NCBI GenBank assembly: GCA_027624315.1
Contig: JAQBXX010000003.1
Span: forward strand, 11,800 to 75,799
Reading direction: 5' to 3'
Source: Pseudomonadota bacterium
GTDB lineage: Bacteria; Pseudomonadota; Gammaproteobacteria; SURF-13
DNA length: 64,000 bases
The position numbers and the translations under genes were made by a program. Positions 1-19,528 of the stretch are shown here, piece by piece. Each line of letters starts with the position of its first letter. Positions within the stretch are counted from its first letter, which is position 1. The notes beneath the pieces are model-generated. The model worked only from the letters and a program-made list of their open reading frames with translations, made no database searches and was not told where the DNA came from.

Positions 1-1
1 C

Positions 2-964
2 GAAGGCATGGCCATCGCCGCCTATACCATCGGCGCTACGATCGGCTACAACTTCATGCGTGGTGAATTTGGCGGGTTGCCCTGCGAGCGTTTTGATGCT
101 GCCTTGGCCGAGGCCCGCGCCGCAGGATTCATCGGCCAGAACATCATGGGGTCAGGCATTAATTTTGAGCTGCACAGCACTTTGGGCGCCGGGGCCTATA
201 TCTCCGGTGAAGAAACCGCGATGCTGGAGACGATAGAGGGCAAAAAGGCATTGCCAAGGTTTAAGCCGCCGTTTCCGGCCAGCTATGGTTTGTACGGACG
301 GCCCACTATCATCAACAACACCGAATCGCTGGCCTCGATACCCCTGATTATGCTGAAGGGCGGGGAATGGTTCCTCAGCATCGGCAAGCCCAATAACGGC
401 GGGCCGAAGATATTTTCCGTGTCCGGTCATGTGAACAAGCCGGGCAATTACGAAGTACCGCTCGGCACGCCGTTCGCCAAGCTGCTGGAGATGGCCGGCG
501 GTATGTGGCAGGGGCGTAAATTGAAGGCTGTGATTCCGGGTGGCTCCTCGGTGCCGGTGCTGCCCGCTGACATCATCATGAACACCAATATGGATTACGA
601 CGCACTTGCCAAGGCTGGCTCCATGCTGGGGGCGGGCTCAGTGATCGTGATGGACGAAACGACTTGCATGGTACGGGCGCTGGCGCGTATTTCTCATTTT
701 TACTATGAAGAATCGTGTGGCCAGTGCACACCCTGCCGCGAGGGTACCGGCTGGCTGTCACGTGTAATTCACCGTATTGAGCATGGGACAGGCAAAATGG
801 AAGACCTCGACATGCTGGTGGATGTGGCCAACAAGATCGAAGGCCGCACCATCTGCGCGCTGGGAGATGCCGCCGCGCTACCGGTGAAGAGTTTCATCGA
901 ACATTTCCGTGATGAATTTCAGTACCACATTGAACATCGCGCCTGTCTGCCGGGCACACACTGA
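2..964 (+). CDS. nuoF: NADH-quinone oxidoreductase subunit F, C-terminal part (5' end outside window)
   Basis: ORF 8..964 is in frame from the window edge; contains the [15 protein letters not shown] 4Fe-4S motif typical of NuoF; immediately upstream of nuoG. Confidence 0.9.
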
Positions 965-975
965 GCCGTGAACGC

Positions 976-3345
976 ATGGTAACCATAGAAATCAACGGCA
1001 AGCCGCTTCAGGTGCGCGACGGCATGATGGTAATCGAGGCCGCAGACGAGGCCGGCATCCCGATCCCGCGTTTCTGTTATCACAAAAAACTTTCCATCAC
1101 GGCCAACTGCCGTATGTGTCTGGTGGACATCGACAAGGCGGTGAAGCCTCTGCCGGCCTGCGCCACGCCCGTCACCGACGGCATGAAGATACTCACCCAT
1201 TCGCCCAAGGCGCTCATGGCGCAAAAGGGCGTGATGGAGTTTCTGCTCATCAATCATCCGCTGGACTGTCCGATCTGCGACCAGGGCGGCGAGTGCGAGC
1301 TGCAGGAGCTTGCGATGGGTTACGGGCGCGATGTCGCGCGCTATCAGGAAAAGAAGCGCGTCGTGCAGGACAAGGACATCGGCCCGCTCATCAGCACCGA
1401 CATGACACGCTGCATCCACTGCACGCGCTGCGTGCGTTTCGGGCAGGAGATTGCCGGTCTGATGGAGCTCGGTGCGACGGGGCGCGGCGAGCACATGGAG
1501 ATTGGCACCTACATCGAGAAAAGCCTGAAGTCAGAGATGTCGGGCAATATCATTGACCTGTGCCCGGTGGGTGCGCTCACCGCCAAGCCGTCACGCTACG
1601 TTGCGCGTGCGTGGGAAATGGCGCAGCGTGCCAGCATTGCCCCGCACGACTCCATTGGCTCCAATCTCTATGTGCATGTGCGCGGCAATCAGGTGATACG
1701 AGTTATCCCGCGCGAAAACGAAGAGATCAATGAAACCTGGATTTCCGACCGTGATCGTTACAGTTATCAGGGGTTGAGCAGCACTGACCGCCTGCGCGTA
1801 CCGATGATTAAACAAAACGGCGCTTGGCACGCAACGGACTGGAGCACGGCGCTGGAAACCGTAGTGCAAGGACTGAAGCAGGTTGTCGCCGCGCACGGCG
1901 CAGCGCAGCTGGGTGCGCTGGCCAGTCCCACGGCTACGCTGGAAGAGATGTACCTGCTGCAGAAGCTGATGCGTGGTCTCGGCTGCAATAATATCGATCA
2001 TCGCCTGCGCCAGACCGATTTCAGCGGTCAGGCAGATGCGCCCGGGTTTCCCGCCCTCAACCACGCCATCGCTGACCTTGAGCAGCTCGATGCGGCGTTG
2101 CTGATTGGCTCCAATGTGCGCAAGGAACAGCCAATTGCGGCGCATCGCCTGCGCAAGGCCGCGCTGAACGGTGCGCACCTCATGCTGCTCAATCCGCTCA
2201 ACTACGACATGAACTTCCCGGTGGCGGAGAAGATCGTTGCGAGCCCTGCGGGCATGGTTCATGCGCTTGCCGGTGTCGTGAAAGAGTTGCTGCAAGGGAA
2301 CGCCGCGCCTGACCCAGCCATTGCAGCGCTGCTTGCCGATGTCCACATCGACGCCACGCACCGCGCCATCGCAGAGCATCTCAAGGGTGCGGATAAAGGC
2401 GCAGTGCTGCTTGGCAATCTCGCTGTTACCCACCCTCACTTCGCCTTACTGCATATACTGGCGCAGTGGGCCGCGCAACTGAGCCAGACCACACTGGGTG
2501 TGCTGCCTGAAGCCGCCAACAGCGCAGGGGCGTGGCTCGCGGGCATGCTGCCGCATCGAGGAGCCGCCGGTGCACGTGTCGCGCAAGCCGGCCTCGACGC
2601 TCAGGCCATGCTGGATGCAAAACTCAAGGCCTACCTCCTCATGGGTGTGGAGCCGGAATACGATTGCGCCAATCCCGCGCGCGCGCTGAGCGCCGTTGCC
2701 GATGCCGACTTCGTGGTGACATTGACGGCATTCAGAAGTGCTGCGATGGAGGGCTATGCCGATGTCATGCTGCCCGTCGTCCCGTTCACCGAAACAGCGG
2801 GCACGTTTGTCAACGCCGAGGGGCGCTGGCAGAGCTTCGAGGCCGCCGTGAATCCACTCGATGAGGCGCGGCCCGCATGGAAGGTGCTGCGCGTACTGGG
2901 TAACCTGTTTGACGCGCCCGGTTTCGATTACGTGACCAGCCACGAGATGCGTGACGAACTCAAGCGCGCAGTCGATAACATGTCATCGAAGAATGAGCGC
3001 AGTGCTGAAGTGCCGGCGCGACGGCTGCCGGCGGCGGACTCCACGCTGATGCGTATCGGTGAGGTGCCGATCTATGCCGTCGATGCACTGGTGCGTCGCG
3101 CCAGCGCCCTGCAACAGACGCAAGAAGCGCAGACAGCGGCGGCGTACGTCAACAGGCGTGTTGCCGCGCAACTTGCTATCGTCGCAGGACAGGAGGTGCA
3201 GGCTGCACAAGGTGAGGCGCGGGCACGGCTTACGGTCGTGATCGACGAGCGCGTACCCGACGGCTGTGTGATGATCCCCGCGGGCCTTGCCGGGAGCGCC
3301 ACGCTCGGCGCTGCGTTTGGCGCCATCGAACTGGCGCGGGTATAG
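976..3345 (+). CDS. nuoG: NADH-quinone oxidoreductase subunit G (molybdopterin/Fe-S subunit)
   Basis: 789 aa ORF; N-terminal 2Fe-2S/4Fe-4S cysteine motifs (CRMCLV, CPICDQGGEC, CIHCTRCVRF); position after nuoF. Confidence 0.93.
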   Translation: MVTIEINGKPLQVRDGMMVIEAADEAGIPIPRFCYHKKLSITANCRMCLVDIDKAVKPLPACATPVTDGMKILTHSPKALMAQKGVMEFLLINHPLDCPICDQGGECELQELAMGYGRDVARYQEKKRVVQDKDIGPLISTDMTRCIHCTRCVRFGQEIAGLMELGATGRGEHMEIGTYIEKSLKSEMSGNIIDLCPVGALTAKPSRYVARAWEMAQRASIAPHDSIGSNLYVHVRGNQVIRVIPRENEEINETWISDRDRYSYQGLSSTDRLRVPMIKQNGAWHATDWSTALETVVQGLKQVVAAHGAAQLGALASPTATLEEMYLLQKLMRGLGCNNIDHRLRQTDFSGQADAPGFPALNHAIADLEQLDAALLIGSNVRKEQPIAAHRLRKAALNGAHLMLLNPLNYDMNFPVAEKIVASPAGMVHALAGVVKELLQGNAAPDPAIAALLADVHIDATHRAIAEHLKGADKGAVLLGNLAVTHPHFALLHILAQWAAQLSQTTLGVLPEAANSAGAWLAGMLPHRGAAGARVAQAGLDAQAMLDAKLKAYLLMGVEPEYDCANPARALSAVADADFVVTLTAFRSAAMEGYADVMLPVVPFTETAGTFVNAEGRWQSFEAAVNPLDEARPAWKVLRVLGNLFDAPGFDYVTSHEMRDELKRAVDNMSSKNERSAEVPARRLPAADSTLMRIGEVPIYAVDALVRRASALQQTQEAQTAAAYVNRRVAAQLAIVAGQEVQAAQGEARARLTVVIDERVPDGCVMIPAGLAGSATLGAAFGAIELARV

Positions 3346-3351
3346 CACGCC

Positions 3352-4395
3352 ATGGATATGCTGAGCACATTCTGGACCACAGTACCTGTCACGCTGCAAA
3401 TCGTGATCCAGATTCTGGCGATTGTGTTGCCCTTGTCACTTGCGGTGGCCTACCTCACGCTGGCTGAGCGCAAGGTGATTGGCTACATTCAGGCGCGCAT
3501 CGGGCCCAATCGCGTGGGCCCGCGCGGTTGGCTACAGCCCATCGCCGACGGCATCAAGCTCCTCATGAAGGAGGTGATTATTCCCTCCGGTGCCAGCCGC
3601 GCACTGTTCATCATCGGGCCGATCTTGTCGCTTGTGCCCGCACTCATCGCCTGGGCGGTGATACCGTTCGACGACACACTGGTGCTCTCCGACATTAACG
3701 CGGGGCTATTGTACATCATGGCAGTCACCTCGATGGGCGTATACGGCGTCATCATTGCGGGCTGGGCCTCCAATTCAAAATATGCGTTTCTGGGTGCGAT
3801 GCGCTGTGCGGCACAGATCGTGTCTTACGAAATCGCCATGGGCTTCGCGCTCGTCGGGGTATTGATCGCGGCAGGCAGCCTCAATCTGGGCGACATCGTA
3901 CGCGCGCAATCGGGGAGCCTGGCGCACTGGTTCTGGTTGCCGCTGCTGCCGTTGTTCCTGATTTACTTCATTGCCGGCGTGGCGGAAACCAACCGCGCAC
4001 CGTTCGACGTCGCCGAGGGCGAGTCGGAAATCGTGGCCGGATTTCATGTCGAGTACTCCGGCATGACCTTCGCGGTGTTCTTTCTCGCCGAATATGCCAA
4101 CATGATTCTGGTTTCAGCGCTGGCCGCGCTGATGTTTTTGGGCGGTTGGCTGTCGCCGTTTCAGGGCATTCCCCTGCTTCAGGGGCTGTTTGCCTGGGTA
4201 CCTGGCATCATCTGGTTGCTGCTGAAAATCTCCGTGCTGCTGTTTCTGTTTTTATGGTTCCGCGCCACCTTCCCGCGCTATCGTTACGACCAGATCATGC
4301 GCCTAGGCTGGAAGGTGTTCATTCCCATCACTATCGTATGGTTGCTGGTGGTGGGTGTCGCCGTGCTTTATAAACTGCCATGGTGGTTTGACTGA
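3352..4395 (+). CDS. nuoH: NADH-quinone oxidoreductase subunit H
   Basis: 347 aa polytopic membrane protein with NuoH/ND1-like sequence; operon position. Confidence 0.93.
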
Positions 4396-4400
4396 GCACC

Positions 4401-4889
4401 ATGAAGACCATTATCAATTACATCAAGAGCCTGTTCCTGTGGGAACTTCTGAAAGGGCTCAAACTGACCGGCGGCTATCTGTTCGCCAAAAAGATCACCG
4501 TGCAGTATCCGGAGGAGAAGACGCCGATGTCGCCGCGCTTTCGTGGTCTGCACGCGCTGCGCCGCTACCCTAATGGGGAAGAGCGCTGCATCGCCTGCAA
4601 ACTGTGTGAGGCGGTCTGTCCGGCGGCCTGTATCACGATTGAGTCGGAACAGCGCGCCGACGGTACACGCCGCACCACGCGCTACGATATTGACCTGTTC
4701 AAGTGCATCTACTGCGGCTTCTGCGAGGAGTCCTGTCCGGTGGATGCCATCGTGGAGACGCGCATCTTCGAGTATCATTTCGAGCAACGCGGTGACAACA
4801 TCATCACCAAGGACAAACTGATGGAGATCGGCGACCGCAACGAAAAACAGATTGCAGCTGATCGCGCCAGCGACGCGCGCTATCGCTAG
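4401..4889 (+). CDS. nuoI: NADH-quinone oxidoreductase subunit I (2x4Fe-4S ferredoxin)
   Basis: Two CxxCxxCxxxCP motifs ([24 protein letters not shown]). Confidence 0.93.
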
Positions 4890-4915
4890 CGCGTTATAAC
4901 CGATCCCGGATTGAC

Positions 4916-5524
4916 ATGGAACACATCATTTTTTATATCTTCTCCGCCATCCTGGTGCTCTCCGCGCTGATGGTGATCACGGTGCGCAACCCGGTGCATG
5001 CAGCGCTGTTTCTGGTGCTCGCATTCTTCACCAGTGCGGCGCTGTGGCTGTTGCTCGAGGCCGAATTCCTCGCCCTCATCCTGGTGCTGGTGTATGTCGG
5101 TGCGGTGATGGTGCTGTTCCTGTTTGTGGTAATGATGCTGGACATCAACCTCACCGTGCTGCGCGAGGGATTTACCAGTTACCTTCCCGTGGGCGCCCTG
5201 ATTGCCACACTGATTCTCATCGAGATGGCGCTGGTGGTCGGGCCTGAACATTTCGGCCTCGACTCTGTCGCCGCGCCTGTGCCGCATACTGCGGGCTACA
5301 GCAATACGCAGGCGCTGGGTAACGTGCTGTACACCGTATACGTGTACCCGTTCGAAATCGCCGGTGTGATCCTGCTGGTCGCTATCATCGGCGCCATCGC
5401 GCTTACCCTGCGCCGCAGGCCACAGACAAAGTATCAGGATCCGTCGCAGCAGGTATTAGTGCGGAGCAAGGATCGCGTACGCATCATCAAAATGCCCTCG
5501 GAGAAGAAGAGGGGTGGCGCATGA
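4916..5524 (+). CDS. nuoJ: NADH-quinone oxidoreductase subunit J
   Basis: 202 aa hydrophobic protein; operon position between nuoI and nuoK. Confidence 0.88.
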
Positions 5525-5826
5525 TCGCCTTGTCGGATTTTCTAGTGCTGAGCGCAATCCTGTTTTGCCTCAGCATGGCGGGCATTTTTCTCAACCGCAA
5601 GAATGTGATTATCCTGCTGATGGCCATCGAACTCATGCTGCTCGCGGTCAACATGAACTTTGTTGCCTTTTCGCATTACCTCGGCGATGACGCCGGACAA
5701 ATTTTCGTCTTCTTCATATTGACCGTGGCCGCCGCGGAGTCGGCCATCGGCCTCGCGATACTGGTGGTGCTGTTCCGCAACCGGCGCGCGATCAATGTCG
5801 AAGACATGGGCAGCCTGAAGGGGTAG
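5521..5826 (+). CDS. nuoK: NADH-quinone oxidoreductase subunit K
   Basis: 101 aa, three TM helices; 4-nt overlap with nuoJ stop. Confidence 0.9.
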
Positions 5827-5829
5827 GGG

Positions 5830-7785
5830 ATGGAGCAGGTTTATCTCGGCATCGTGCTTGCGCCCCTGTTCGGGGCCGTTCTCGCAGGCCTGTTCGGCAG
5901 GTATATCGGACGCAGCGGATCACACTGGGTCACCATCGCCGGTGTGGCGGTTTCCTTTGCGCTATCGCTGCTGGTCTTCAAGCAGATCATCATCGACGGC
6001 GCGGCACCGTTTAACGGCGCCATCTACACCTGGATGGTAAGCGACGGTATCAAATTCGAGATCGGCTTTCTGGTCGATCAACTGACCGCACTGATGATCG
6101 TGGTCGTAACCTTCGTCTCGCTGATGGTGCATATCTACACCATCGGCTACATGCATGATGACCCCGGCTACCAGCGCTTTTTCAGCTACATCGCGCTGTT
6201 CACCTTCTCCATGCTGATGCTGGTGATGTCCAACAATTTCCTGCAACTGTTCTTCGGCTGGGAGGCGGTGGGTCTGGTGTCCTACCTGCTGATCGGCTTC
6301 TGGTTCCAGCGCGAATCCGCGATCTATGCCAACCTCAAGGCGTTTCTGGTCAACCGCGTGGGCGACCTCGGCTTCCTGCTCGGCATCGCCGTCATACTGA
6401 TGCACTTCAACACGCTCGATTACGCGCAGATATTCAAAATGGCACCGCATCTTGCGCACGAAACAGTCACGTTTATTCCCGGCTACGAATGGTCGTTGAT
6501 GACGGTGATCTGCATCCTGCTGTTCATCGGTGCCATGGGTAAGTCGGCGCAGGTACCGCTGCACGTGTGGCTACCGGACTCCATGGAAGGCCCTACTCCG
6601 ATTTCGGCCCTGATACACGCGGCGACCATGGTCACGGCGGGTATCTTCATGGTCGCGCGCATGTCGCCGTTGTTTGAGCTCTCCGAAACCGCACTGAGTT
6701 TTATGATGCTGATCGGCGCGGTCACCGCGCTGTCCATGGGCTTGCTCGGCATTGTCCAGAACGACATCAAACGCGTGGTGGCTTATTCCACCCTGTCGCA
6801 ACTGGGCTATATGACGGTGGCGCTGGGCGCCTCGGCCTACGCCGGCGCCATCTTCCATCTCATGACGCATGCCTTCTTCAAGGCACTCCTGTTCCTCGCC
6901 GCAGGCTCGGTGATCATCGCGCTGCATCACGAGCAGGATATACGCAAGATGGGCGCGCTGAAAAATCATCTGCCGATTACCTACTGGACCTTCCTGATCG
7001 GTACGCTGGCCCTGATCGGCTTCCCCGGCTTCTCCGGCTTTTTCTCCAAGGATGCCATCATCGAGGCAGTCTACGAGTCCACGCTGCCCGGTGCCGGCAT
7101 GGCCTATGCCGCTGTGATGATCGGTGTTTTCGTCACCGCACTGTACAGTTTCCGCTTGCTGTTTCTGGTCTTCCACGGCGAGTCGCGCGTGGATGCGCAT
7201 ACACGCAAACATCTGCATGAAAGCCCGTGGGTAGTGACCGTCCCGCTGATCGCGCTCGCCATTCCCTCAGTGATTATGGGCGCGATTCACGCCGGCCCCA
7301 TGCTGTTTCATGACTTCTTCGGCAAGGCCATATTTGTCCTGCCCCAACATGATGTGCTCGCTCATATGGGCCGCGAATATCAAGGTGTGATGGGCTTTGT
7401 ATTGCATGGACTGATAGAGCCGCCGGTGTGGTTGGCGTTTGCGGGCATCGCAACGGCCTGGTGGTGTTACATCAAACACCCCGAAATTCCCGCTGTCGTG
7501 ATGAGCCGCTGCGCTACACTCTACCGGATCCTGTGTAATAAATATGGATTCGATGATTTCAACGACACCGTCTTCGCCGGCGGCGGACGGCGCTTCGGGC
7601 GCCTGCTGTGGCAGGTAGGTGATGTCACTGTGGTGGATGGCGTGATGGTGAACGGTACCGCGCGCGGCATAGGATGGTTTTCATCCGTCGTGCGCCACGT
7701 ACAGACTGGCTACCTGTATCATTACGCCTTTGCCATTATCATCGGGCTCGTGCTGATGCTCGGCTGGCCTCTGCTCAGTCAATAA
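5830..7785 (+). CDS. nuoL: NADH-quinone oxidoreductase subunit L
   Basis: 651 aa antiporter-like membrane subunit; operon position. Confidence 0.92.
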   Translation: MEQVYLGIVLAPLFGAVLAGLFGRYIGRSGSHWVTIAGVAVSFALSLLVFKQIIIDGAAPFNGAIYTWMVSDGIKFEIGFLVDQLTALMIVVVTFVSLMVHIYTIGYMHDDPGYQRFFSYIALFTFSMLMLVMSNNFLQLFFGWEAVGLVSYLLIGFWFQRESAIYANLKAFLVNRVGDLGFLLGIAVILMHFNTLDYAQIFKMAPHLAHETVTFIPGYEWSLMTVICILLFIGAMGKSAQVPLHVWLPDSMEGPTPISALIHAATMVTAGIFMVARMSPLFELSETALSFMMLIGAVTALSMGLLGIVQNDIKRVVAYSTLSQLGYMTVALGASAYAGAIFHLMTHAFFKALLFLAAGSVIIALHHEQDIRKMGALKNHLPITYWTFLIGTLALIGFPGFSGFFSKDAIIEAVYESTLPGAGMAYAAVMIGVFVTALYSFRLLFLVFHGESRVDAHTRKHLHESPWVVTVPLIALAIPSVIMGAIHAGPMLFHDFFGKAIFVLPQHDVLAHMGREYQGVMGFVLHGLIEPPVWLAFAGIATAWWCYIKHPEIPAVVMSRCATLYRILCNKYGFDDFNDTVFAGGGRRFGRLLWQVGDVTVVDGVMVNGTARGIGWFSSVVRHVQTGYLYHYAFAIIIGLVLMLGWPLLSQ

Positions 7786-7795
7786 GAATATTCCC

Positions 7796-9313
7796 ATGCC
7801 GGCTGATTTCCCTCTATTAAGTCTTGCGATCTGGCTGCCCATCGTCGGCGGCCTGCTGATGCTCGCCACCGCAAGCGAACAGCGCGTGCAGCATACCCGC
7901 ATGCTGGCATTGATCGTTTCGCTGCTTACATTTCTTTGCACGATCCTGCTGTACACGCATTTTAATCATAAGACGTATCACATGCAGTTCGCAGAGAAGA
8001 TGGAGTGGATACAGGCCTTTGATATCAACTACCACCTGGGCATCGACGGCATCAGCCTGCCGCTGATACTGCTTACCAGCTTCACCACCGTGCTGGTAGT
8101 CATCGCCGGCTGGGAGGTGATCCGCTACAAGCTGGCACAGTACATGGCGGCCTTCCTCATCATGGAAGGGCTGATGATCGGTGTGTTTTCCGCGCTCGAT
8201 GCCATTCTGTTCTACGTATTCTGGGAAGGCATGCTGATCCCGATGTTCCTCATTATCGGCATTTGGGGTGGGCCGCACCGTGTGTATGCGGCGGTAAAAT
8301 TCTTTCTGTATACCTTCCTCGGCTCGGTGCTGATGCTGGTCGCGTTTCTGTATCTGTATTTCGCGGCAGGCAGCTTTGCGATCCTCGACCTCCACCAGCT
8401 CAAAATCGGCATGACGGCTCAGGTACTCATCTTCATCGCCTTCCTGGTTGCATTTGCCGTCAAGGTGCCGATGTGGCCGGTGCATACATGGCTCCCAGAC
8501 GCACACGTCGAGGCGCCCACCGGCGGCTCCGTCATCCTTGCCGCCATCATGTTGAAGATGGGCGCGTACGGTTTTCTGCGCTTCAGCCTGCCGATCACGC
8601 CGGATGCGAGCCACGAGCTCGACTGGCTCATGATTATGCTGTCGCTGATCGCAGTGGTGTACATCGGCTTCGTCGCGCTGGTGCAGACGGATATGAAAAA
8701 GCTCATTGCGTACTCGTCCATCTCGCACATGGGCTTCGTCACGCTGGGCTTTTTTATCGTCTTCATGATTTTCGAGCAGACCGGCTCCACGCACGGCGCC
8801 GCGATGGGGCTGGAGGGCGGCCTGGTGCAAATGATCTCGCACGGTTTTGTCTCCAGCGCGCTGTTCCTGTGCGTGGGCGTGCTGTATGACCGCCTGCACA
8901 GCCGCGAGATCAGCGCCTATGGCGGCGTAGCCAACACCATGCCGGCCTTCGCCGCGCTCATGGTGTTGTTCGCGCTTGCCAACTCCGGCCTGCCCGGCAC
9001 CTCTGGCTTCGTGGGCGAATTCATGGTGATCCTCAGCACCTTCAAGGCAAATTTCTGGCTTGCGCTGCTCGCCGGGACTACGCTGATACTGGGTGCTGCC
9101 TACACCCTGTGGATGGTGAAGCGCGTCATCTTCGGTGCGGTGGCCAATGACGGCGTCGCGAGCCTCAAGGACATGAATGCACGCGAGGCGCTGGTACTGG
9201 GCGTGCTTGCCGTCGCCGTGCTGGGCCTCGGTCTCTGGCCTGCGCCGGTACTGGATATCATGCATCCCTCGGTACAGCATCTGCTGCAACACATCATGCA
9301 ATCGAAACTGTGA
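7796..9313 (+). CDS. nuoM: NADH-quinone oxidoreductase subunit M
   Basis: 505 aa antiporter-like membrane subunit; operon position. Confidence 0.92.
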
Positions 9314-13745: not shown

Positions 13746-14297
13746 ATGAATCTGCCCAATATCCTGACTTTTGTCCGCATCGGCCTGATCCCGGTGTTCG
13801 TGCTTGCCTTCTATCTCCCGTTCAGCTGGGCGCATGTACTTACCGCCGCAATCTTCGCCCTGGCGGCCCTGACCGACATACTGGACGGCTACCTCGCGCG
13901 CCGGCTCGGGCAGGTGTCCGCCCTCGGCACCTTCCTCGACCCGGTAGCGGACAAGCTGATGGTCGCGGTTGCCCTCGTACTGCTGGTGCAGGCCGACCCC
14001 ACACCCTGGCTCGCCATCCCGGCCGCCGTGATTATCGGGCGCGAGATCACCATTTCCGCATTGCGCGAATGGATGGCGGAGATCGGCCAACGCACCTCGG
14101 TCGCGGTGTCGGTGATAGGGAAATTCAAGACCGTCGCCCAGATGCTGGCGCTGCTGTTCCTGCTCTACCGCGAGCCGGTGGTGGGGCTTCCCGTCTACAG
14201 TATAGGCCTGGTGTTACTGTACTTGGCGGCGGGGCTTACGTTGTGGTCCATGGTGGTCTATTTACGTGCCGCCTGGCGCAGCCTGAGGGCGGGCTGA
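13746..14297 (+). CDS. pgsA: CDP-diacylglycerol--glycerol-3-phosphate 3-phosphatidyltransferase
   Basis: 183 aa membrane protein with CDP-alcohol phosphatidyltransferase motif (DGYLAR...G...D...ADK); follows uvrC as in E. coli. Confidence 0.92.
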   Translation: MNLPNILTFVRIGLIPVFVLAFYLPFSWAHVLTAAIFALAALTDILDGYLARRLGQVSALGTFLDPVADKLMVAVALVLLVQADPTPWLAIPAAVIIGREITISALREWMAEIGQRTSVAVSVIGKFKTVAQMLALLFLLYREPVVGLPVYSIGLVLLYLAAGLTLWSMVVYLRAAWRSLRAG

Positions 14298-14354
14298 CAG
14301 CCGCTTTACCTTGACAGCCGGGCCACCGCGGTTACAATAGCGAGCTTCATTTGT

Positions 14355-14429
14355 GCGGGAATAGCTCAGTGGTAGAGCACAACCTTGCCAAGGTTGGGGT
14401 CGCGAGTTCGAATCTCGTTTCCCGCTCCA
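14355..14429 (+). tRNA. glyW: tRNA-Gly (anticodon GCC)
   Basis: GCGGGAATAGCTCAGTGGTAGAGCA...CTTGCCAAGG...GGTTCGAATCT...CCCGCTCCA; cloverleaf by eye; anticodon loop ctGCCaa. Confidence 0.93.
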
Positions 14430-14448
14430 TAATTCAATGATTCAGCAC

Positions 14449-14522
14449 GGCTGGGTGGCAGAGTGGTCATGCAGCGGCCTGCAAAGCCGTGTACGCCGGT
14501 TCGATTCCGACCTCAGCCTCCA
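14449..14522 (+). tRNA. cysT: tRNA-Cys (anticodon GCA)
   Basis: GGCTGGGTGGCAGAGTGGTCATGCA...CCTGCAAAG...GGTTCGATTCCG...CAGCCTCCA; anticodon loop ctGCAaa. Confidence 0.92.
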
Positions 14523-14550
14523 TTATCCCTCGCTATTACCCTCTCATAAT

Positions 14551-14637
14551 GCCCGGGTGGCGGAATTGGTAGACGCAAGGGACTTAAAATCCCTCGGCCT
14601 CACGGCTGTGCCGGTTCGATTCCGGCCCCGGGCACCA
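14551..14637 (+). tRNA. leuZ: tRNA-Leu (anticodon TAA), long variable arm
   Basis: GCCCGGGTGGCGGAATTGGTAGACGC...CTTAAAATC... variable arm ...GGTTCGATTCCGGCCCCGGGCACCA; 87 nt. Confidence 0.92.
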
Positions 14638-14662
14638 TATAAAATCAATAAGATAAAAGCTA

Positions 14663-14697
14663 TACTTGAAGTAACTTCAAGATGACTTTTTTTGCCC
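14663..14697 (+). terminator. Rho-independent terminator after tRNA cluster
   Basis: cttgaagt/acttcaag hairpin followed by atgacttttttt. Confidence 0.6.
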
Positions 14698-14847
14698 GTA
14701 GGGAAAACGTGCCAGATTAATCACGTTGCCACCGCGCTCCGATTCAATGCGTGCCGACGCTACAGCCAAATATTCAGTGGTTAATCCATGTTCTGGCGCA
14801 GTCCGTTGGCCATCCGGCTCTCGCTCGCTAGCGGCCGATGGTCGCGC

Positions 14848-14880
14848 TTGACATACCATTAATGGTATAGGCACAATATG
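14848..14880 (+). promoter_or_regulatory. Putative promoter with perfect 16-bp palindromic operator for the downstream toxin-antitoxin fusion gene
   Basis: TTGACA (14848-14853) then ATACCATTAATGGTAT perfect palindrome (14853-14868), a further ATGGTAT half-site and a CACAAT -10-like hexamer ending about 6 nt before the ATG at 14883 (possible leaderless mRNA). Confidence 0.45.
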
Positions 14881-14882
14881 GT

Positions 14883-15428
14883 ATGTGGCGCATCGAGGAG
14901 CACCGTCGAGTCGACAAACAGCTCTCGGGAGCCGTCCCGCCCGAAATACTCAAGCGCTACGAGAAATGGAAAGACATTGCGAGTCTCTCGGGCCCGCCCG
15001 GTCTGCGCACGATCAAGGGGTTTCACGATGAAGCTCTATCGGGCGAGTGGAAGGGCCATCGATCTTCCCGACTGGGGCTTCAGTGGCGAGTGATCTATCG
15101 AGTCGTCGCGGACGTACTGTCGATCCAGGTCATTCAAGTCACCCCACACGATTACGGAGGCCCTGATATGAAAGAGTTTCGTCCTGCCAAGAAGCGAGTT
15201 GAGGTTTCTGTGGGAGAGTCTGTCCGCATCCTTCGCGAGCTCCAGGAACTCAGCCAACGCCAGCTCTCCGAACTCACGGGTATTCCTCAGGCTACTATCT
15301 CCGCCATCGAGAATGGCCGGATCAATCTGGGCGTCGAGCGGGCCAAGGTTCTAGCTCGTGCACTCAAGTGTCACCCGGCGGTGCTCGTTTTCCCGGGCTG
15401 GGAGGTTCCACTTGAATCTGCGGCATAA
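14883..15428 (+). CDS. RelE/ParE(HigB-like) toxin fused in frame to an XRE-family HTH antitoxin (single 181-aa ORF; internal SD+ATG at 15168)
   Basis: N-terminal ~94 aa ends ...GEWKGHRSSRLGLQWRVIYRVVADVLSIQVIQVTPHDY (RelE/ParE fold signature); C-terminal half MKEFRPAKKRVEVSVGESVRILRELQELSQRQLSELTGIPQATISAIENGRINLGVERAKVLARAL is a Cro/C1-type HTH; no stop between them (gat tac GGA GGc cct gat ATG). Confidence 0.7.
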   Translation: MWRIEEHRRVDKQLSGAVPPEILKRYEKWKDIASLSGPPGLRTIKGFHDEALSGEWKGHRSSRLGLQWRVIYRVVADVLSIQVIQVTPHDYGGPDMKEFRPAKKRVEVSVGESVRILRELQELSQRQLSELTGIPQATISAIENGRINLGVERAKVLARALKCHPAVLVFPGWEVPLESAA

Positions 15429-15497
15429 CCCAACACTCAAGCGGACACCAAAATCCCCCGATAAAGTTGACACCCGGTGCTGATTGGAGAATAAACA

Positions 15498-15831
15498 CAT
15501 GATTCAGGAAACTATTGGCAGAATCGAAGACAAAATTAAAAAAACCAAATTGATGCAGGGAGAAAACAAGGATGAGCTGCTGCATCTGGTGGCAGAGCTA
15601 AAGAGTGAAGTAATGGCACTTTCCAAAACACATCCGGAACAAGCCGAAAGCATTGCCGGCTTTGCAGATATTTCCGCACATGAAGCCGTGAGGGATGTGA
15701 GAAACCCAGACCTGTCCAAGCTGTCAACCGAAGGATTGCTGGCCTCCGTGCGCGAATTCGAGCAATCTCACCCGCGACTGGTTAGCATTGTTAATGTCAT
15801 CAGCAACACCCTGTCAAATATGGGAATTTAA
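15498..15831 (+). CDS. Small coiled-coil protein, probably DUF4404 family
   Basis: ATG at 15498 preceded by GGAG 9 nt upstream; C-terminus ...EFEQSHPRLVSIVNVISNTLSNMGI resembles the conserved DUF4404 C-terminal motif; lower GC than flanks. Confidence 0.55.
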
Positions 15832-15919
15832 GACTAGGAAATCCACCAGCAATCACTGCGATGGTGAAGGCGGAGGGAAGAGAATGATGGGTTTGCGAAC
15901 GGTGCGGGCTTGTGGGATG

Positions 15920-16126
15920 TCAAATGTAAGGCCTGACCCTAGTGTTTCTGACCCTAGTGTTTCTAGTAGTAGTGTTTCTAGTTTCTAGTGTTTCTAGTAG
16001 TGTTTCTAGTAGTGTTTCTAGTGTTTCTAGTGTTTCACGTAGTGTTTCACGCGGGATGGTTTTGCATTCGTGTTGCAGCAGTGAGTCTGCCTCCTTGCCC
16101 AGGAGTTGGCTGATGCGGTCGATCAT
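15920..16126 (-). CDS. Hypothetical 68-aa ORF whose C-terminal two thirds are encoded by the tandem repeat (…RETLRETLETLETLLETLLETLETRNTTTRNT…)
   Basis: ATG at 16126 preceded by GAGG 7 nt upstream; non-repeat N-terminus MIDRISQLLGKEADSLLQHECKTIP; may be spurious. Confidence 0.25.
   Translation of the reverse strand: MIDRISQLLGKEADSLLQHECKTIPRETLRETLETLETLLETLLETLETRNTTTRNTRVRNTRVRPYI
15934..16050. repeat. Degenerate tandem repeat array, ~10 units of (TAG)n-TGTTTC / GACCCTAGTGTTTC (7-15 nt units)
   Basis: Direct reading: tgaccctagtgtttc x2, tagtagtagtgtttc, tagtttc, tagtgtttc, tagtagtgtttc x2, tagtgtttc x2, acgtagtgtttc. Confidence 0.9.
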
Positions 16127-16274
16127 GCGGACACCTCGTTTATCTGGACGGGCTGCGGTAATGCGGGTCTATCCAGCAGCGCGGCGGTTTTTCATCGGAA
16201 GGGAATACGAGCTCAGTCTTGTCAAACGATGCAGGCTCCGGCATTTCCTCGCCGACATGGCTGCTTAGGTGGGT

Positions 16275-16466
16275 TTATTTTGCGCAGCTACGGTCAGAAT
16301 CTTCCGTGAAAGCCTGCGTGCCTATGTAGTAGGTGTTTTGGTAAGTCTGATACTGCTGTAAACCCCACAGGCCGGCAGCAATCACCAATGCGAGGAATAG
16401 TGCCCGGTAGTTCCGCGCGAGGGAGGAGAGGCTGGACGTCCGGGCGAAGGTCTGGGTGCTGAACAT
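16275..16466 (-). CDS. Hypothetical small membrane protein (63 aa, one TM helix)
   Basis: ATG at 16466 with GAGGTG SD 4-5 nt upstream; hydrophobic segment ALFLALVIAAGLWGL; immediately downstream of srkA. Confidence 0.4.
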   Translation of the reverse strand: MFSTQTFARTSSLSSLARNYRALFLALVIAAGLWGLQQYQTYQNTYYIGTQAFTEDSDRSCAK

Positions 16467-16549
16467 AATTCACCTCATGCAGGGCTCGTCTCGCCATACT
16501 ACCCCCCATCCGTGAGCCGCTACAAGCATCTAAGCATTGGGCCCTTTGA

Positions 16550-17542
16550 TCACGCGGGCGCGAGAGGCGGCTCATCCATCAGCGCCACCTGCTCGCGCAG
16601 TTCGAGGATGCGATCCTGCCAGTAGCGCTGGGTGTTGAACCAGGGGAAGGCGGCGGGGAAGGCGGGGTCGTCCCAGCGCCGGGCCAGCCACGCCGAGTAG
16701 TGAATCAGACGCAACGTGCGTAGCGCCTCCACCAGATGCAGTTCACGCATATCGAAATCGCAGAAATCCTCGTAGCCGGCGAGCACGTCGCCGAGCTGGC
16801 GCTGCATCGAGGAATGATCGCCTGAAAGCAGCATCCACAAATCCTGTACGGCGGGCCCCATGCGGCTGTCATCGAAGTCGACGAAATGCGGGCCGTCATC
16901 GGCCCACAGTACGTTGCCGGCGTAGCAGTCGCCGTGCAGGCGCAATATGCGCACCTTACCGGCGCGCGCATAACAACTGCGCACGCCGTCCAGCGCCTGC
17001 GCCACGACGCTCTGCCAGGCATCCATCAGGTCCGCAGGAATGAAGCCGTGCGCGAGCAGGTAATCGCGCGGTTCTTCGCCGAAGCTTGCGATGTCCAGTG
17101 TGGGCCGGGCAAGAAATGGCCGCACCGCGCCGACCGCGTGGATGCGCCCGATAAAGCGGCCCATCCATTCAAGAGTGGTGCGATCATCGAACTCGGGCGC
17201 ACGACCGCTTTGCCGCGGATATACGGCGAAACGAAAGGCCCCGAAGCTGTGTAGCGTCTGTTCACCAGCGAGAACCAGCGGGGCCACGACCGGTATCTCG
17301 TGCTCGACGAGCTCATGCACGAACGCATGCTCTTCCAGAATGGCGGCGTCAGACCAGCGTCCGGGACGATAAAACTTCGCCACCATCGGCGGGCCTTCAT
17401 CCATGCCGGCTTGATAAACGCGGTTTTCGTAACTGTTGAGGGCGAGCAGGCGTCCGTCACCCCTCAATCCCACACTCTCCAGCGCATCGAGCACGCAATC
17501 CGGCGTGAGCCCCGCATAGGGCGTGGTTTCGGTGATATCCAA
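16550..17542 (-). CDS. srkA: Stress response Ser/Thr protein kinase SrkA (YihE/RdoA family)
   Basis: 330 aa; strong similarity to E. coli YihE along whole length (LNSYENRVYQ, FYRPGRWS, LRLHGDCYAGNVLW, GPAVQDLWMLL, PWFNTQRYW); TTG start 10 nt after higA stop. Confidence 0.88.
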   Translation of the reverse strand: MDITETTPYAGLTPDCVLDALESVGLRGDGRLLALNSYENRVYQAGMDEGPPMVAKFYRPGRWSDAAILEEHAFVHELVEHEIPVVAPLVLAGEQTLHSFGAFRFAVYPRQSGRAPEFDDRTTLEWMGRFIGRIHAVGAVRPFLARPTLDIASFGEEPRDYLLAHGFIPADLMDAWQSVVAQALDGVRSCYARAGKVRILRLHGDCYAGNVLWADDGPHFVDFDDSRMGPAVQDLWMLLSGDHSSMQRQLGDVLAGYEDFCDFDMRELHLVEALRTLRLIHYSAWLARRWDDPAFPAAFPWFNTQRYWQDRILELREQVALMDEPPLAPA

Positions 17543-17552
17543 GGGCAGCCTG

Positions 17553-17927
17553 CTAGGCCGCGCGCCGTAACGGATATTTTTGTATCAGTACGTCGGCCGG
17601 AATATTCAATCCTTCCGACAGGCGGCGCACCATCTCCAAGGTAAGCGGGCGTGTACGGCCCAGTATCTCTGCAACCCGTCCACGGCTACCGATGCAGGGT
17701 TCCAGGTCTTTACGAGTCAATCCTCGTGTTTCCATCACATAGTGCAGGAAGTCAATCGGATCAGGGTCTGGGATGGGGTAGTGCCTGGCCTCGTAATCGG
17801 CAATGAGCAGCGTCAGCACGTCCAGCCGGTCGGCTTGGGGAGTGCCGGCCTTTGCCGCCCACAGCGCCTCGGCCTCTTTGAGAGCGGCCTTATAGTCACG
17901 TTTACTCTTGATCGGTTTCAGTTCCAT
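17553..17927 (-). CDS. higA: HigA-family antitoxin (C-terminal HTH)
   Basis: 124 aa; C-terminal HTH GLTRKDLEPCIGSRGRVAEILGRTRPLTLEMVRRLSEGLNIPADVLI typical of HigA; directly downstream of higB. Confidence 0.8.
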   Translation of the reverse strand: MELKPIKSKRDYKAALKEAEALWAAKAGTPQADRLDVLTLLIADYEARHYPIPDPDPIDFLHYVMETRGLTRKDLEPCIGSRGRVAEILGRTRPLTLEMVRRLSEGLNIPADVLIQKYPLRRAA

Positions 17928-17942
17928 TTTGTTTGCACCTCG

Positions 17943-18236
17943 TTAAATCGTGCTCGCATCTATCCTTGCGTATTGCTGGTGTGTGCCGACAAAGCGGATA
18001 AACATCAGGCCACGGTTGTAATGCACGGCCACCACCAGCCGGTAGTCATTGCCCTTAATGTTGAATACCACGCGGTTATCGGCCAGGAAGCTTGCATTGC
18101 GATAGGCGGCCTTAATGTCAGCCGGGCTTTTCCAATGGGCGCGACTCGCATCGGCATACCAGCTACGCAAAGGGATTTCCGCCTGTGGGTGCTTTTCCCA
18201 AAACTCGCGCAACCTCGACAGGGCAATAATCCGCAT
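17943..18236 (-). CDS. higB: HigB-family mRNA interferase toxin
   Basis: 97 aa; similarity to E. coli HigB (…FNIKGNDYRLVVAVHYNRGLMFIRFVGTHQQY); toxin gene upstream of antitoxin as in higBA. Confidence 0.8.
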   Translation of the reverse strand: MRIIALSRLREFWEKHPQAEIPLRSWYADASRAHWKSPADIKAAYRNASFLADNRVVFNIKGNDYRLVVAVHYNRGLMFIRFVGTHQQYARIDASTI

Positions 18237-18307
18237 GCATCAATTTACCATGTTCCCACTATGGGAGCAACACGCCAGACGAACATGATGGACGTACACC
18301 GTATATT

Positions 18308-18335
18308 ACTTAACATAATATACATTATACGAAGT
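18308..18335 (-). other. dif: dif-like chromosome dimer resolution site (XerC/XerD target)
   Basis: Reverse complement ACTTCGTATAA-TGTATA-TTATGTTAAGT vs E. coli dif GGTGCGCATAA-TGTATA-TTATGTTAAAT: central 6/6, XerD arm 10/11, XerC arm 7/11; in AT-rich spacer at the point where gene orientation converges. Confidence 0.7.
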
Positions 18336-18367
18336 ATTATTAATAAGTAAGTTAATAAATACAATAA

Positions 18368-19144
18368 CTAGGGAGATACTTTAAAAAGTCTTATAAAGTT
18401 ACTGGAGGTGGCCTCTTCGACTGCCGACAGAGGGATATTACGCACCTCGGCAATGCGCTCGGCGACGTGGCGCACATAGGCAGGCTGGTTGGTCTTGCCC
18501 CGTTTCGGAACCGGGGCGAGATATGGGGAATCGGTTTCGATCAACAGGCGGTCAAGCGGCATCCGCGCGGCGACGTCGCGCAGGGTGTGGGCACTGTTGA
18601 AGGTGACAATGCCGGAAAACGAGATGTAGAAATTGAGCGCCAGCGCCGCCTGGGCCATTTCCCAGTCTTCGGTAAAGCAGTGCATCACGCCGCCTGCCCG
18701 CTCGGCACCCCCCTCGCGCAGGATACGCACGGTGTCTGCCTTAGCCTCGCGGCTATGCACAATGAGGGGCTTGCCGACGCGCAGCGCAGCGCGGATATGA
18801 GTGCGGAAGCGCTCCTGCTGCCAGCCAACGTCACCTTTGCAATGGTAGTAGTCGAGGCCGGTCTCGCCGATGGCGACGATCTTGGGATGCTGCGCCAGCG
18901 CAACCAGCTCATCCACTGTCGGTTCGCGGCACTCGCGTTCATCGGGGTGCACGCCTACGGAGGCATAGATGAAGGGGTATTGCTCGGCGATAGCGAGCAC
19001 CGCGGGAAAGGTTTCGAGATTTACGCAGACACTCAGCAGTTGCTCCACGCCCTGCTGCCGTGCGGTCTGGAGGACATGGTCGAGATCCCCTCCCAGCGCG
19101 TCAAAATCGAGCCGGTCGAGGTGGCAGTGCGAATCAATCAGCAT
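18368..19144 (-). CDS. tatD: TatD-family metal-dependent DNase (YcfH)
   Basis: 258 aa; MLIDSHCHLD N-terminus and conserved TatD motifs; synteny holB-pilZ-tatD. Confidence 0.9.
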   Translation of the reverse strand: MLIDSHCHLDRLDFDALGGDLDHVLQTARQQGVEQLLSVCVNLETFPAVLAIAEQYPFIYASVGVHPDERECREPTVDELVALAQHPKIVAIGETGLDYYHCKGDVGWQQERFRTHIRAALRVGKPLIVHSREAKADTVRILREGGAERAGGVMHCFTEDWEMAQAALALNFYISFSGIVTFNSAHTLRDVAARMPLDRLLIETDSPYLAPVPKRGKTNQPAYVRHVAERIAEVRNIPLSAVEEATSSNFIRLFKVSP

Positions 19145-19153
19145 ACCCTTGTG

Positions 19154-19528
19154 CTACAGGGTGTTTGTTGCACGCTCGGCCTGCAACAGCCCGGCGAGAT
19201 AGCCCTCAATCTTGCTGCGCGTGGAGCCGCCGTCTATCTCGCTGAACTGCACGCCGATGCCGGCGGGGCGATTTCCCTGCGCTCCCTTGGGAGTGAGCCA
19301 GACGATGCGACCGGCGACAGGCAGTTTTTCTGTCTCATCCATCAGCGTGAGCAGAATAAACACCTCGTCACCCAGCTGGTAGGCCTTGGCGCTGGGAATG
19401 AACATCCCGCCGTTCTTGATAAACGGCATGTAAGCGGCGTATAGCGCGCCCTTGTCCTTGAGTGACAGCGACATGATGCCCTGTCGTCCCGTCGCAGGTG
19501 CGGGTTTGGGTGCTTCAGCCATGTGCAA
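19154..19528 (-). CDS. pilZ: Type IV pilus assembly PilZ-domain protein
   Basis: ~120 aa; LSLKDKGALYAAYMPFIKNGGMFIP matches Pseudomonas PilZ; conserved tmk-holB-pilZ-tatD order. Confidence 0.85.
   Translation of the reverse strand: MHMAEAPKPAPATGRQGIMSLSLKDKGALYAAYMPFIKNGGMFIPSAKAYQLGDEVFILLTLMDETEKLPVAGRIVWLTPKGAQGNRPAGIGVQFSEIDGGSTRSKIEGYLAGLLQAERATNTL

Follow-up and report, generated by a model that had tools for sequence, protein, structure and literature searches.

The genes higB, higA and srkA lie next to each other on the minus strand of a 64,000-nt stretch of DNA from an uncultured Pseudomonadota bacterium (contig JAQBXX010000003.1 of assembly GCA_027624315.1, positions 11,800 to 75,799; hereafter the window), and a first-pass annotation had read this arrangement either as a toxin-antitoxin (TA) module inserted directly upstream of a stress kinase gene or as a functional three-gene module. 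Our analyses indicate that the arrangement very probably represents a lineage-specific insertion of a higBA cassette into the spacer between the chromosomal dif site and srkA, and not a conserved three-gene system, because the same spacer is empty in five relatives, the cassette occurs in unrelated contexts in other sequences, and its guanine-plus-cytosine (GC) content is lower than that of its flanks. The loss of the native 5' region of srkA lends further support to the insertion, the first of the two possibilities previously raised. The features on which the argument rests are the following.

17943-18236, minus strand: higB, encoding a predicted RelE-fold ribosome-dependent mRNA interferase toxin of 97 amino acids
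17553-17927, minus strand: higA, encoding a predicted helix-turn-helix (HTH) antitoxin of 124 amino acids, with an ATG start and a GAGGTG Shine-Dalgarno sequence in the 15-nt gap between higB and higA
16550-17542, minus strand: srkA, encoding a YihE/RdoA-type Ser/Thr kinase; an intact host gene, separated from higA by 10 nt
18368-19144, minus strand: tatD, encoding a YchF/TatD-family hydrolase (PF01026, 3e-87; TIGR00010, 2e-89); the left host flank of the insertion
18308-18335, minus strand: chromosomal dif site, ACTTCGTATAATGTATATTATGTTAAGT, with XerC arm ACTTCGTATAA, centre TGTATA and XerD arm TTATGTTAAGT
17552-18279, minus strand: the inserted higBA cassette of about 728 bp, comprising a putative promoter/operator, higB and higA, and ending 1 nt past the higA stop codon

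Gene identities at the locus

The coordinates of the three collinear genes, the 10-nt gap and the TTG start of srkA reported in the first-pass annotation all hold in the open reading frame (ORF) table and in the sequence. HigB belongs to the HigB toxin family, as it matched the Pfam family PF09907 (HigB_toxin) with an E-value of 1.3e-30 and 105.9 bits (cutoff 27) and the E. coli HigB structures (PDB 5YCL_B and 5IFG_A) with E-values of about 2e-8. HigA had no match in Pfam or NCBIfam; its C-terminal HTH aligned weakly with E. coli HigA (PDB 5YCL_A and 5IFG_B; E ~0.003), and many of its 1405 homologues carry the name HigA in JGI and NCBI. The two genes have the toxin-first, closely spaced operon order of HigBA type II TA systems, and the pair is, as judged from these matches, of the E. 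coli type. Like the E. coli K-12 HigB-HigA pair (YgjN-YgjM, PDB 5IFG), it consists of a PF09907 toxin gene followed by an HTH antitoxin gene whose product aligns at its C-terminal HTH, and a palindrome in its promoter region is what would be expected for autoregulation by the antitoxin. The two pairs differ in that their similarity is distant (E ~1e-8 and 3e-3), HigA has 124 amino acids here and 138 in E. coli, and the cassette described here abuts a host gene without any 3' flank; the toxin and antitoxin roles are predicted in our case.

SrkA is a member of the SrkA/YihE/RdoA stress kinases, with an equivalog-level match to NCBIfam NF008738 (504.7 bits, cutoff 194, E = 1.2e-151) and a match to E. 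coli YihE (1ZYL) with an E-value of 9e-88. Its catalytic motifs HGDCxAGN and DxDD are intact, HGDCYAGN and DFDD aligning with HGDCHAGN and DLDD of the E. coli protein. Ten nucleotides separate the stop codon of higA (17553-17555) from the TTG at 17542, which is the earliest start codon in the srkA ORF; the same protein in NCBI (P0001) starts two codons later, at an ATC, and the exact start codon is uncertain.

As had been noted before, the GC content of the TA genes is lower than that of srkA, which is host-like, the values being 0.541 for higB and 0.576 for higA compared with 0.633 for srkA, 0.609 for tatD and 0.601 for the whole window. GC content at the third codon position behaved in the same way (higB, 0.66; higA, 0.64; srkA, 0.75; tatD, 0.73).

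The site in close relatives

A protein search yielded five relatives, L083, L084, L097, L098 and L099, whose SrkA proteins are 82-93% identical by alignment to that of the window. In all five the site is empty: tatD and srkA are separated by a spacer of 127-164 nt that contains no higBA, and srkA begins with ATG. In the window, tatD is the final gene of a conserved run, mltG-tmk-holB-pilZ-tatD, which is also present in L083, L084 and L099, and L097 shows pilZ-tatD only, again upstream of srkA. Since the site is also empty in L099, the most distant of the five, higBA appears to have been gained in the lineage of the window and not lost elsewhere. A sixth relative, L085 (SrkA 88% identical), likewise lacks higBA and has no tatD upstream of srkA.

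Boundaries of the cassette

BLAST comparisons showed that the cassette shares 89-90% nucleotide identity with cassettes in L088 and L089/L091, all of which lie in unrelated flanks, with neighbours including another antitoxin gene and an RF-1-domain gene. Homology to these cassettes runs from 18279 or 18275 to 17552, and stops at the higA stop codon in the other contexts as well. Homology to the empty-site relatives covers 18450-18291, ending at 18291 in both L083 and L084, and resumes from 17541 or 17528 to 17400. The segments between and beside these blocks can be divided as follows.

18291-18307, minus strand: host-derived spacer past the XerD arm of dif, at the end of which alignment to the empty-site relatives stops
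18280-18290, minus strand: left junction, about 11 nt with no match to the host relatives or to other higBA cassettes
17543-17552, minus strand: right junction, the 10 nt CAGGCTGCCC between the higA stop codon and the srkA TTG, of unmatched origin
17529-17542, minus strand: rewritten 5' end of srkA, with TTG GAT ATC ACC in place of the relatives' ATG GAA ACA RCA, in frame

Roughly 110-125 bp of host DNA has thus been replaced, including a conserved TAYGATAAT box, the srkA ATG and the first four srkA codons. At the left junction, TTGCCC in L083 and TTGCTC in the cassette are alike and lie at similar distances from dif, a microhomology that is weak and not found in L084.

A less favourable view of these boundaries is that the junction is a chimera of metagenome assembly, or that the insertion silenced srkA, which would now be a pseudogene in the making. 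The window is metagenome-derived, its divergence from L001 at position 15663 implies some misassembly or strain mixing nearby, and the srkA TTG has no good Shine-Dalgarno sequence. However, the junction is identical in three assemblies, no repeat that might cause a chimera is present at it, and the join is in frame to an intact srkA in which the lineage-specific changes comprise six synonymous and one non-synonymous change in addition to the start codon, a pattern similar to that in the relatives. We consider this explanation decidedly unlikely. Pseudogenization of srkA was rejected for want of an excess of non-synonymous changes (6 versus 1), in a test of low power, and with no sign of decay srkA is probably still used.

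L001, an independent assembly, is identical to the window (100%) from 27542 down to 15663 (L001 position 11880), after which it carries different genes (ffh and others). The divergence falls within a DUF4404 gene and represents either a strain-level rearrangement or a chimeric assembly.

The dif site and the mode of insertion

The dif site was absent from the first-pass annotation. It has the 28-bp architecture of two 11-bp arms and a 6-bp centre, is the only match in the window (none in 100 shuffled sequences), and agrees with the E. coli dif sequence, GGTGCGCATAATGTATATTATGTTAAAT (taken from PMC3025954), at 23 of 28 positions, including 6/6 in the centre and 10/11 in the XerD arm. The site is conserved in the tatD-srkA spacer of L083, L084, L097, L098 and L099 (XerD arm, 11/11). 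The XerD arm of the window, TTATGTTAAGT, ends in AAGT, and all six relatives have AAAT (form TTATGTTAAAT). Within the 64 kb visible, all five FtsK-orienting polar sequence (KOPS) motifs, GGGNAGGG, point to dif; GC skew has negative values rightwards of about 24 kb and mixed values leftwards, a switch at dif being only partly visible over this length. A dif site has thereby been identified for an uncultured lineage.

In L085, positions 1-5931 are occupied by a PM2-like (corticovirus-type) element, which encodes a PM2-type coat protein P2 along with Rep_1 and an HTH repressor and lies directly upstream of srkA. Its repressor ORF ends within a hybrid dif site in which the XerC arm is foreign and the centre and XerD arm are intact, the prophage being joined at the XerC side. 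The sequence fetched stops short of the opposite prophage end. This structure is consistent with integration at the dif centre by Xer recombination, in the manner of integrative mobile elements exploiting Xer (IMEX). The presence of dif, together with this prophage in the same spacer, indicates that the tatD-srkA spacer is probably the dimer-resolution site of the chromosome and an insertion hot spot for mobile DNA; dif would explain why this spacer is such a hot spot. The spacer occurs in three states, empty, with a higBA insertion and with a PM2-like prophage, and so illustrates the plasticity of the probable terminus. Insertion of a TA cassette in this plastic region is an event of a known type, that is, ordinary genome plasticity.

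The proximity of the cassette to dif raises the alternative that higBA is itself a Xer-mobilized element, either a dif module of the Acinetobacter type or a small IMEX, which entered through XerC/D action at the chromosomal dif. The host/cassette break is only 17 nt from dif, Acinetobacter plasmids are known to carry dif modules with higBA (PMC5906591, PMC13141974), and an IMEX-like element occupies the same dif in L085. However, the break lies outside the dif centre and beyond the XerD arm, both arms and the 17 nt past the XerD arm being host sequence; no second dif-like site was found at the cassette (best score 14/28 in 17300-18300); and no such site was present in the 293 kb scanned at 84 other higA loci. 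With no second site scoring at least 15/28 beside the cassette and none near the 84 higA loci, a dif module or IMEX was rejected, and Xer-mediated entry is very unlikely. We infer that higBA was inserted by illegitimate or flank-mediated recombination.

Compared with chromosomal dif sites that host IMEX, the locus shares a 28-bp XerC/D-type site, probably in the terminus region, a TA locus right beside it and, in a relative, a prophage at the dif centre; it differs in that higBA lies outside the dif core and lacks a second dif. The Acinetobacter plasmid modules (higBA, brnTA) are similarly small, TA-only and adjacent to a XerC/D site, but the paired flanking pdif sites of those modules are absent here and the location is chromosomal. 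In E. coli MG1655 (L100), dif (1590750-1590777) and the 3' end of hipA are only 76 nt apart, hipBA being the immediate neighbour of dif. The hipBA toxin, adjoining dif in E. coli K-12, is itself a Ser/Thr kinase. The parallel in TA-dif proximity would rest on these two anecdotes, hipBA and higBA; it is conceivable, if quite unlikely, that TA loci beside dif are kept because they stabilize the terminus/dif region.

Surveys of the higA-srkA adjacency

The second possibility raised earlier, that higB-higA-srkA is an evolved three-component module with the kinase as a dedicated partner that, for example, phosphorylates HigB or HigA or buffers the toxin, predicts that the adjacency should recur, and the first-pass annotation had proposed a genome survey for it. 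We examined srkA in one genome per species, giving 80 betaproteobacterial loci with SrkA identities of 72-82%. Neighbourhoods were variable, and HigB, HigA and TatD were found within 6 kb of srkA at none of the 80 loci; in addition, no toxin or antitoxin family domain was present among 34 small ORFs located at most 900 nt upstream of srkA at these loci. From the other side, we collected 84 higA loci with identities of 57-93%, metagenomes supplying 80 and look-ups 4; 58 of the 84 include at least 1 kb downstream of higA. A HigB homologue accompanied higA at 72 of the 84 within the fetched flank (up to 2.5-4 kb), and a SrkA homologue at none, those 58 included.

Adjacency of higB-higA-srkA thus recurred in 0/80 srkA loci, 0/6 close relatives and 0/84 higA loci, and higA-srkA was found only in the window, in L001 and L002, and in the protein P0001 from one NCBI metagenome-assembled genome, all 100% identical, which may derive from one population. 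A conserved three-gene module was rejected on the strength of the three surveys and the six close relatives. The tight 10-nt spacing, the lack of a visible promoter or terminator signal between the genes, the reported antagonism of MazF by E. coli YihE (PMC9663540) and the existence of three-gene systems based on HigB (PMC9519451) would all suit a dedicated partnership; against it, apart from the surveys, srkA is a vertically inherited host gene with an overwritten 5' end, and the cassette stops exactly at the higA stop codon in other contexts. We regard such a module as extremely unlikely. The operon-like adjacency, being a single-lineage insertion, should not serve as evidence for a functional link between SrkA and TA systems.

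Such a module would be analogous to the known TA-chaperone and PD-lambda-2 three-gene systems. HigB matched the PADLOC model PD-Lambda-2_A (5e-41), and HigA matched PD-Lambda-2_B (8e-40) over the first 121 of 402 model positions, corresponding to its N-terminal HigA-like part. PD-lambda-2 consists of a HigB-like component A, a HigA-peptidase fusion as component B and a P4-antitoxin-like component C (PMC9519451), and in both this system and the toxin-antitoxin-chaperone system TAC (HigBA-SecB) a third gene follows a HigBA-like pair. The present HigA, however, has no C-terminal ImmA/IrrE peptidase domain (124 amino acids compared with the 402-position model), and no P4-antitoxin-like or SecB-like gene follows, the third gene being an unrelated host kinase. 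A PD-lambda-2 defence system was therefore rejected, as only HigB and the HigA-like domain match and the peptidase domain and the C component are missing; the HigBA subfamily found here is predicted to be a two-gene relative of the first two PD-lambda-2 components.

In E. coli, yihE is co-transcribed with dsbA and YihE antagonizes MazF (PMC9663540), as had been correctly cited for comparison. Although the kinase of the window is an equivalog-level orthologue with intact catalytic motifs, its surroundings differ from those of the Cpx-regulated yihE(srkA)-dsbA operon: the upstream partner is tatD-dif and not the E. coli context, and downstream lie an ORF of 63 codons and then an aldolase remnant, the relatives having a small ORF and a class I aldolase gene. 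No dsbA lies immediately downstream of srkA in the window, and no dsbA-type gene occurs among the called downstream genes of the six close relatives. The E. coli comparison carries little weight here because dsbA did not turn up in the gene clusters that recur around srkA at the 80 betaproteobacterial loci, which are clusters without a dsbA annotation. A link of YihE to a TA toxin, moreover, has been reported for MazF in E. coli only.

Expression signals and the fate of srkA

A consensus scan of the region detected no sigma-70-like promoter or terminator between higA and srkA, in agreement with the earlier remark that no promoter-like gap separates the two genes, and its sole promoter-like match, at 18343-18315 on the upstream side of higB, shares bases with dif. 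No terminator was predicted between tatD and higB or from there down to srkA. Upstream of higB, the following element can be read from the sequence.

18242-18270, minus strand: putative higBA promoter, TTGCTC and TAAATT separated by 17 nt, surrounding the palindrome TCCCA-TAG-TGGGA (18254-18266)

L088 and L089 share both the putative promoter and the palindrome, and L088 retains the symmetry by changes in both halves (TCCCG-TGG-CGGGA), which hints that the palindrome is a candidate HigA operator.

In L083, L084, L085, L097 and L098, a conserved TAYGATAAT box precedes the srkA ATG at a distance of 5 nt, and a Shine-Dalgarno sequence is lacking (for example, L083 5988-6003); L099, the most distant relative, has a different spacer and a different srkA N-terminus and lacks the box. 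Its position suggests that TAYGATAAT may be the -10 element of a leaderless ancestral srkA transcript; the consensus scan detected no native srkA promoter in L083, the box being read from the alignment only. With the native 5' region and ATG of srkA removed, we infer that dependence of srkA on transcription from upstream, by the higBA promoter and/or by read-through from tatD, is plausible, as is co-transcription of higBA and srkA, to judge from the layout of these signals. Functional coupling of srkA with higBA is unsupported.

It is possible, although we think it rather doubtful, that the TA promoter has little influence, srkA keeping a promoter of its own in the 3' part of higA or being transcribed mainly by read-through from tmk-holB-pilZ-tatD. 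The lack of a predicted terminator from tatD to srkA would permit such read-through, for which the empty-site relatives offer the same opportunity across dif, and many real promoters escape consensus scans. On the other hand, no sigma-70-like site was found in higA, the box preceding the ATG in most relatives has been deleted here, and any promoter firing from higBA necessarily runs into srkA.

We also noted a 7-bp hairpin in which the 3' end of higA pairs with the 10 nt of the right junction, spanning the higA stop codon. Its fold was not significantly better than those of shuffled sequences (z = -1.07) and no T-run follows it, and an attenuator or terminator at the higA-srkA junction was rejected.

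Several points weigh against the insertion and its proposed consequences for srkA. About 10 nt at each junction has no match in any sequence retrieved; the junction-bearing assemblies (the window, L001 and L002, in addition to P0001) may share one source sample and give no independent replication; the proposed higBA promoter scores 7/12, below the threshold of the consensus scan, and the same scan can overlook real promoters within higA; and the srkA TTG lacks a clear Shine-Dalgarno sequence and lies by the junction hairpin. The weak initiation context and the hairpin imply that srkA could be poorly expressed.

Proposed course of events

The ancestor would have been an uncultured betaproteobacterium-like lineage with the gene order mltG-tmk-holB-pilZ-tatD-dif-srkA, in which srkA had its own ATG and the conserved upstream box. 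The strain sampled would then have acquired, in the dif-srkA spacer 17 nt past the XerD arm, a self-contained higBA cassette of ~730 bp carrying an autoregulated promoter/operator, higB and higA and nothing beyond the higA stop codon. Its entry would have deleted roughly 110-125 bp, comprising the entire srkA 5' region, the ATG and the first four codons, and the in-frame join of srkA, with its TTG at 10 nt from the end of higA, may reflect chance or selection among recombinants. Transcription of srkA would now come from upstream only, started at a higBA promoter under repression by HigA or reading through from tatD past dif. Translation would begin at the TTG or, following NCBI, at the ATC located two codons on, served either by a weak AGG at a distance of 6 nt upstream or by translational coupling to the end of higA. 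In such a sequence of events, the linkage of kinase and TA genes would be a side effect of insertion into a plastic site at the terminus and not an evolved three-component system, and the locus may be taken as a clean natural case in which a TA cassette has captured host gene expression, the promoter, ATG and four codons of the host gene being replaced in frame.

A bolder extension is that the insertion subjected srkA to a promoter which HigA represses and which antitoxin degradation would derepress, so that the kinase is induced as HigB is freed and a newborn TA-kinase circuit has arisen beside dif. This is quite unlikely, in our estimation. If true, a kinase whose E. coli counterpart opposes toxin-linked death would be induced exactly at the release of HigB.

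Neighbouring features

The surroundings of the locus contain one further host gene that bears on its layout.

16275-16466, minus strand: ORF of 63 amino acids with one hydrophobic segment, 3' of srkA; a host gene

It corresponds to the small membrane ORF, not dsbA, that had previously been placed after srkA, and has no family match in Pfam or NCBIfam; ORFs of 63 amino acids occupy the same position in L097 and L098, and ORFs of 71-73 amino acids in L083-L085. Beyond it, the gene for a class I fructose-bisphosphate aldolase, 350 amino acids long in the relatives, is broken off after about codon 26 (15920-16126, 15933-16048). About 1.9 kb of the aldolase region has been exchanged for short tandem repeats with periods of 9-21 nt (TAGTGTTTC-like), leaving an ORF of 68 amino acids with an ETLETL tail, and homology to the relatives picks up again at the DUF4404 gene.

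A search of 14000-19500 against Rfam, judged by E-value, revealed three tRNAs only and no other non-coding RNA in the spacers. Next to this tRNA-Gly/Cys/Leu cluster (14355-14637), on the plus strand at 14883-15428, is a single stop-free ORF of 181 amino acids (…VTPHDYGGPDMKEF…) whose N-terminal half resembles a RelE/YafQ toxin and whose C-terminal half resembles an Xre-type HTH antitoxin; it may be a fused TA pair or one that has lost a stop codon. In L085, a TA pair of the brnT/CopG type is located downstream of the aldolase gene (8645-9229) and has in front of it a dif-like half site, CATGTATATTATGGTAATA (centre, 6/6; XerD arm, 8/11), which may have arisen by chance in AT-rich DNA.

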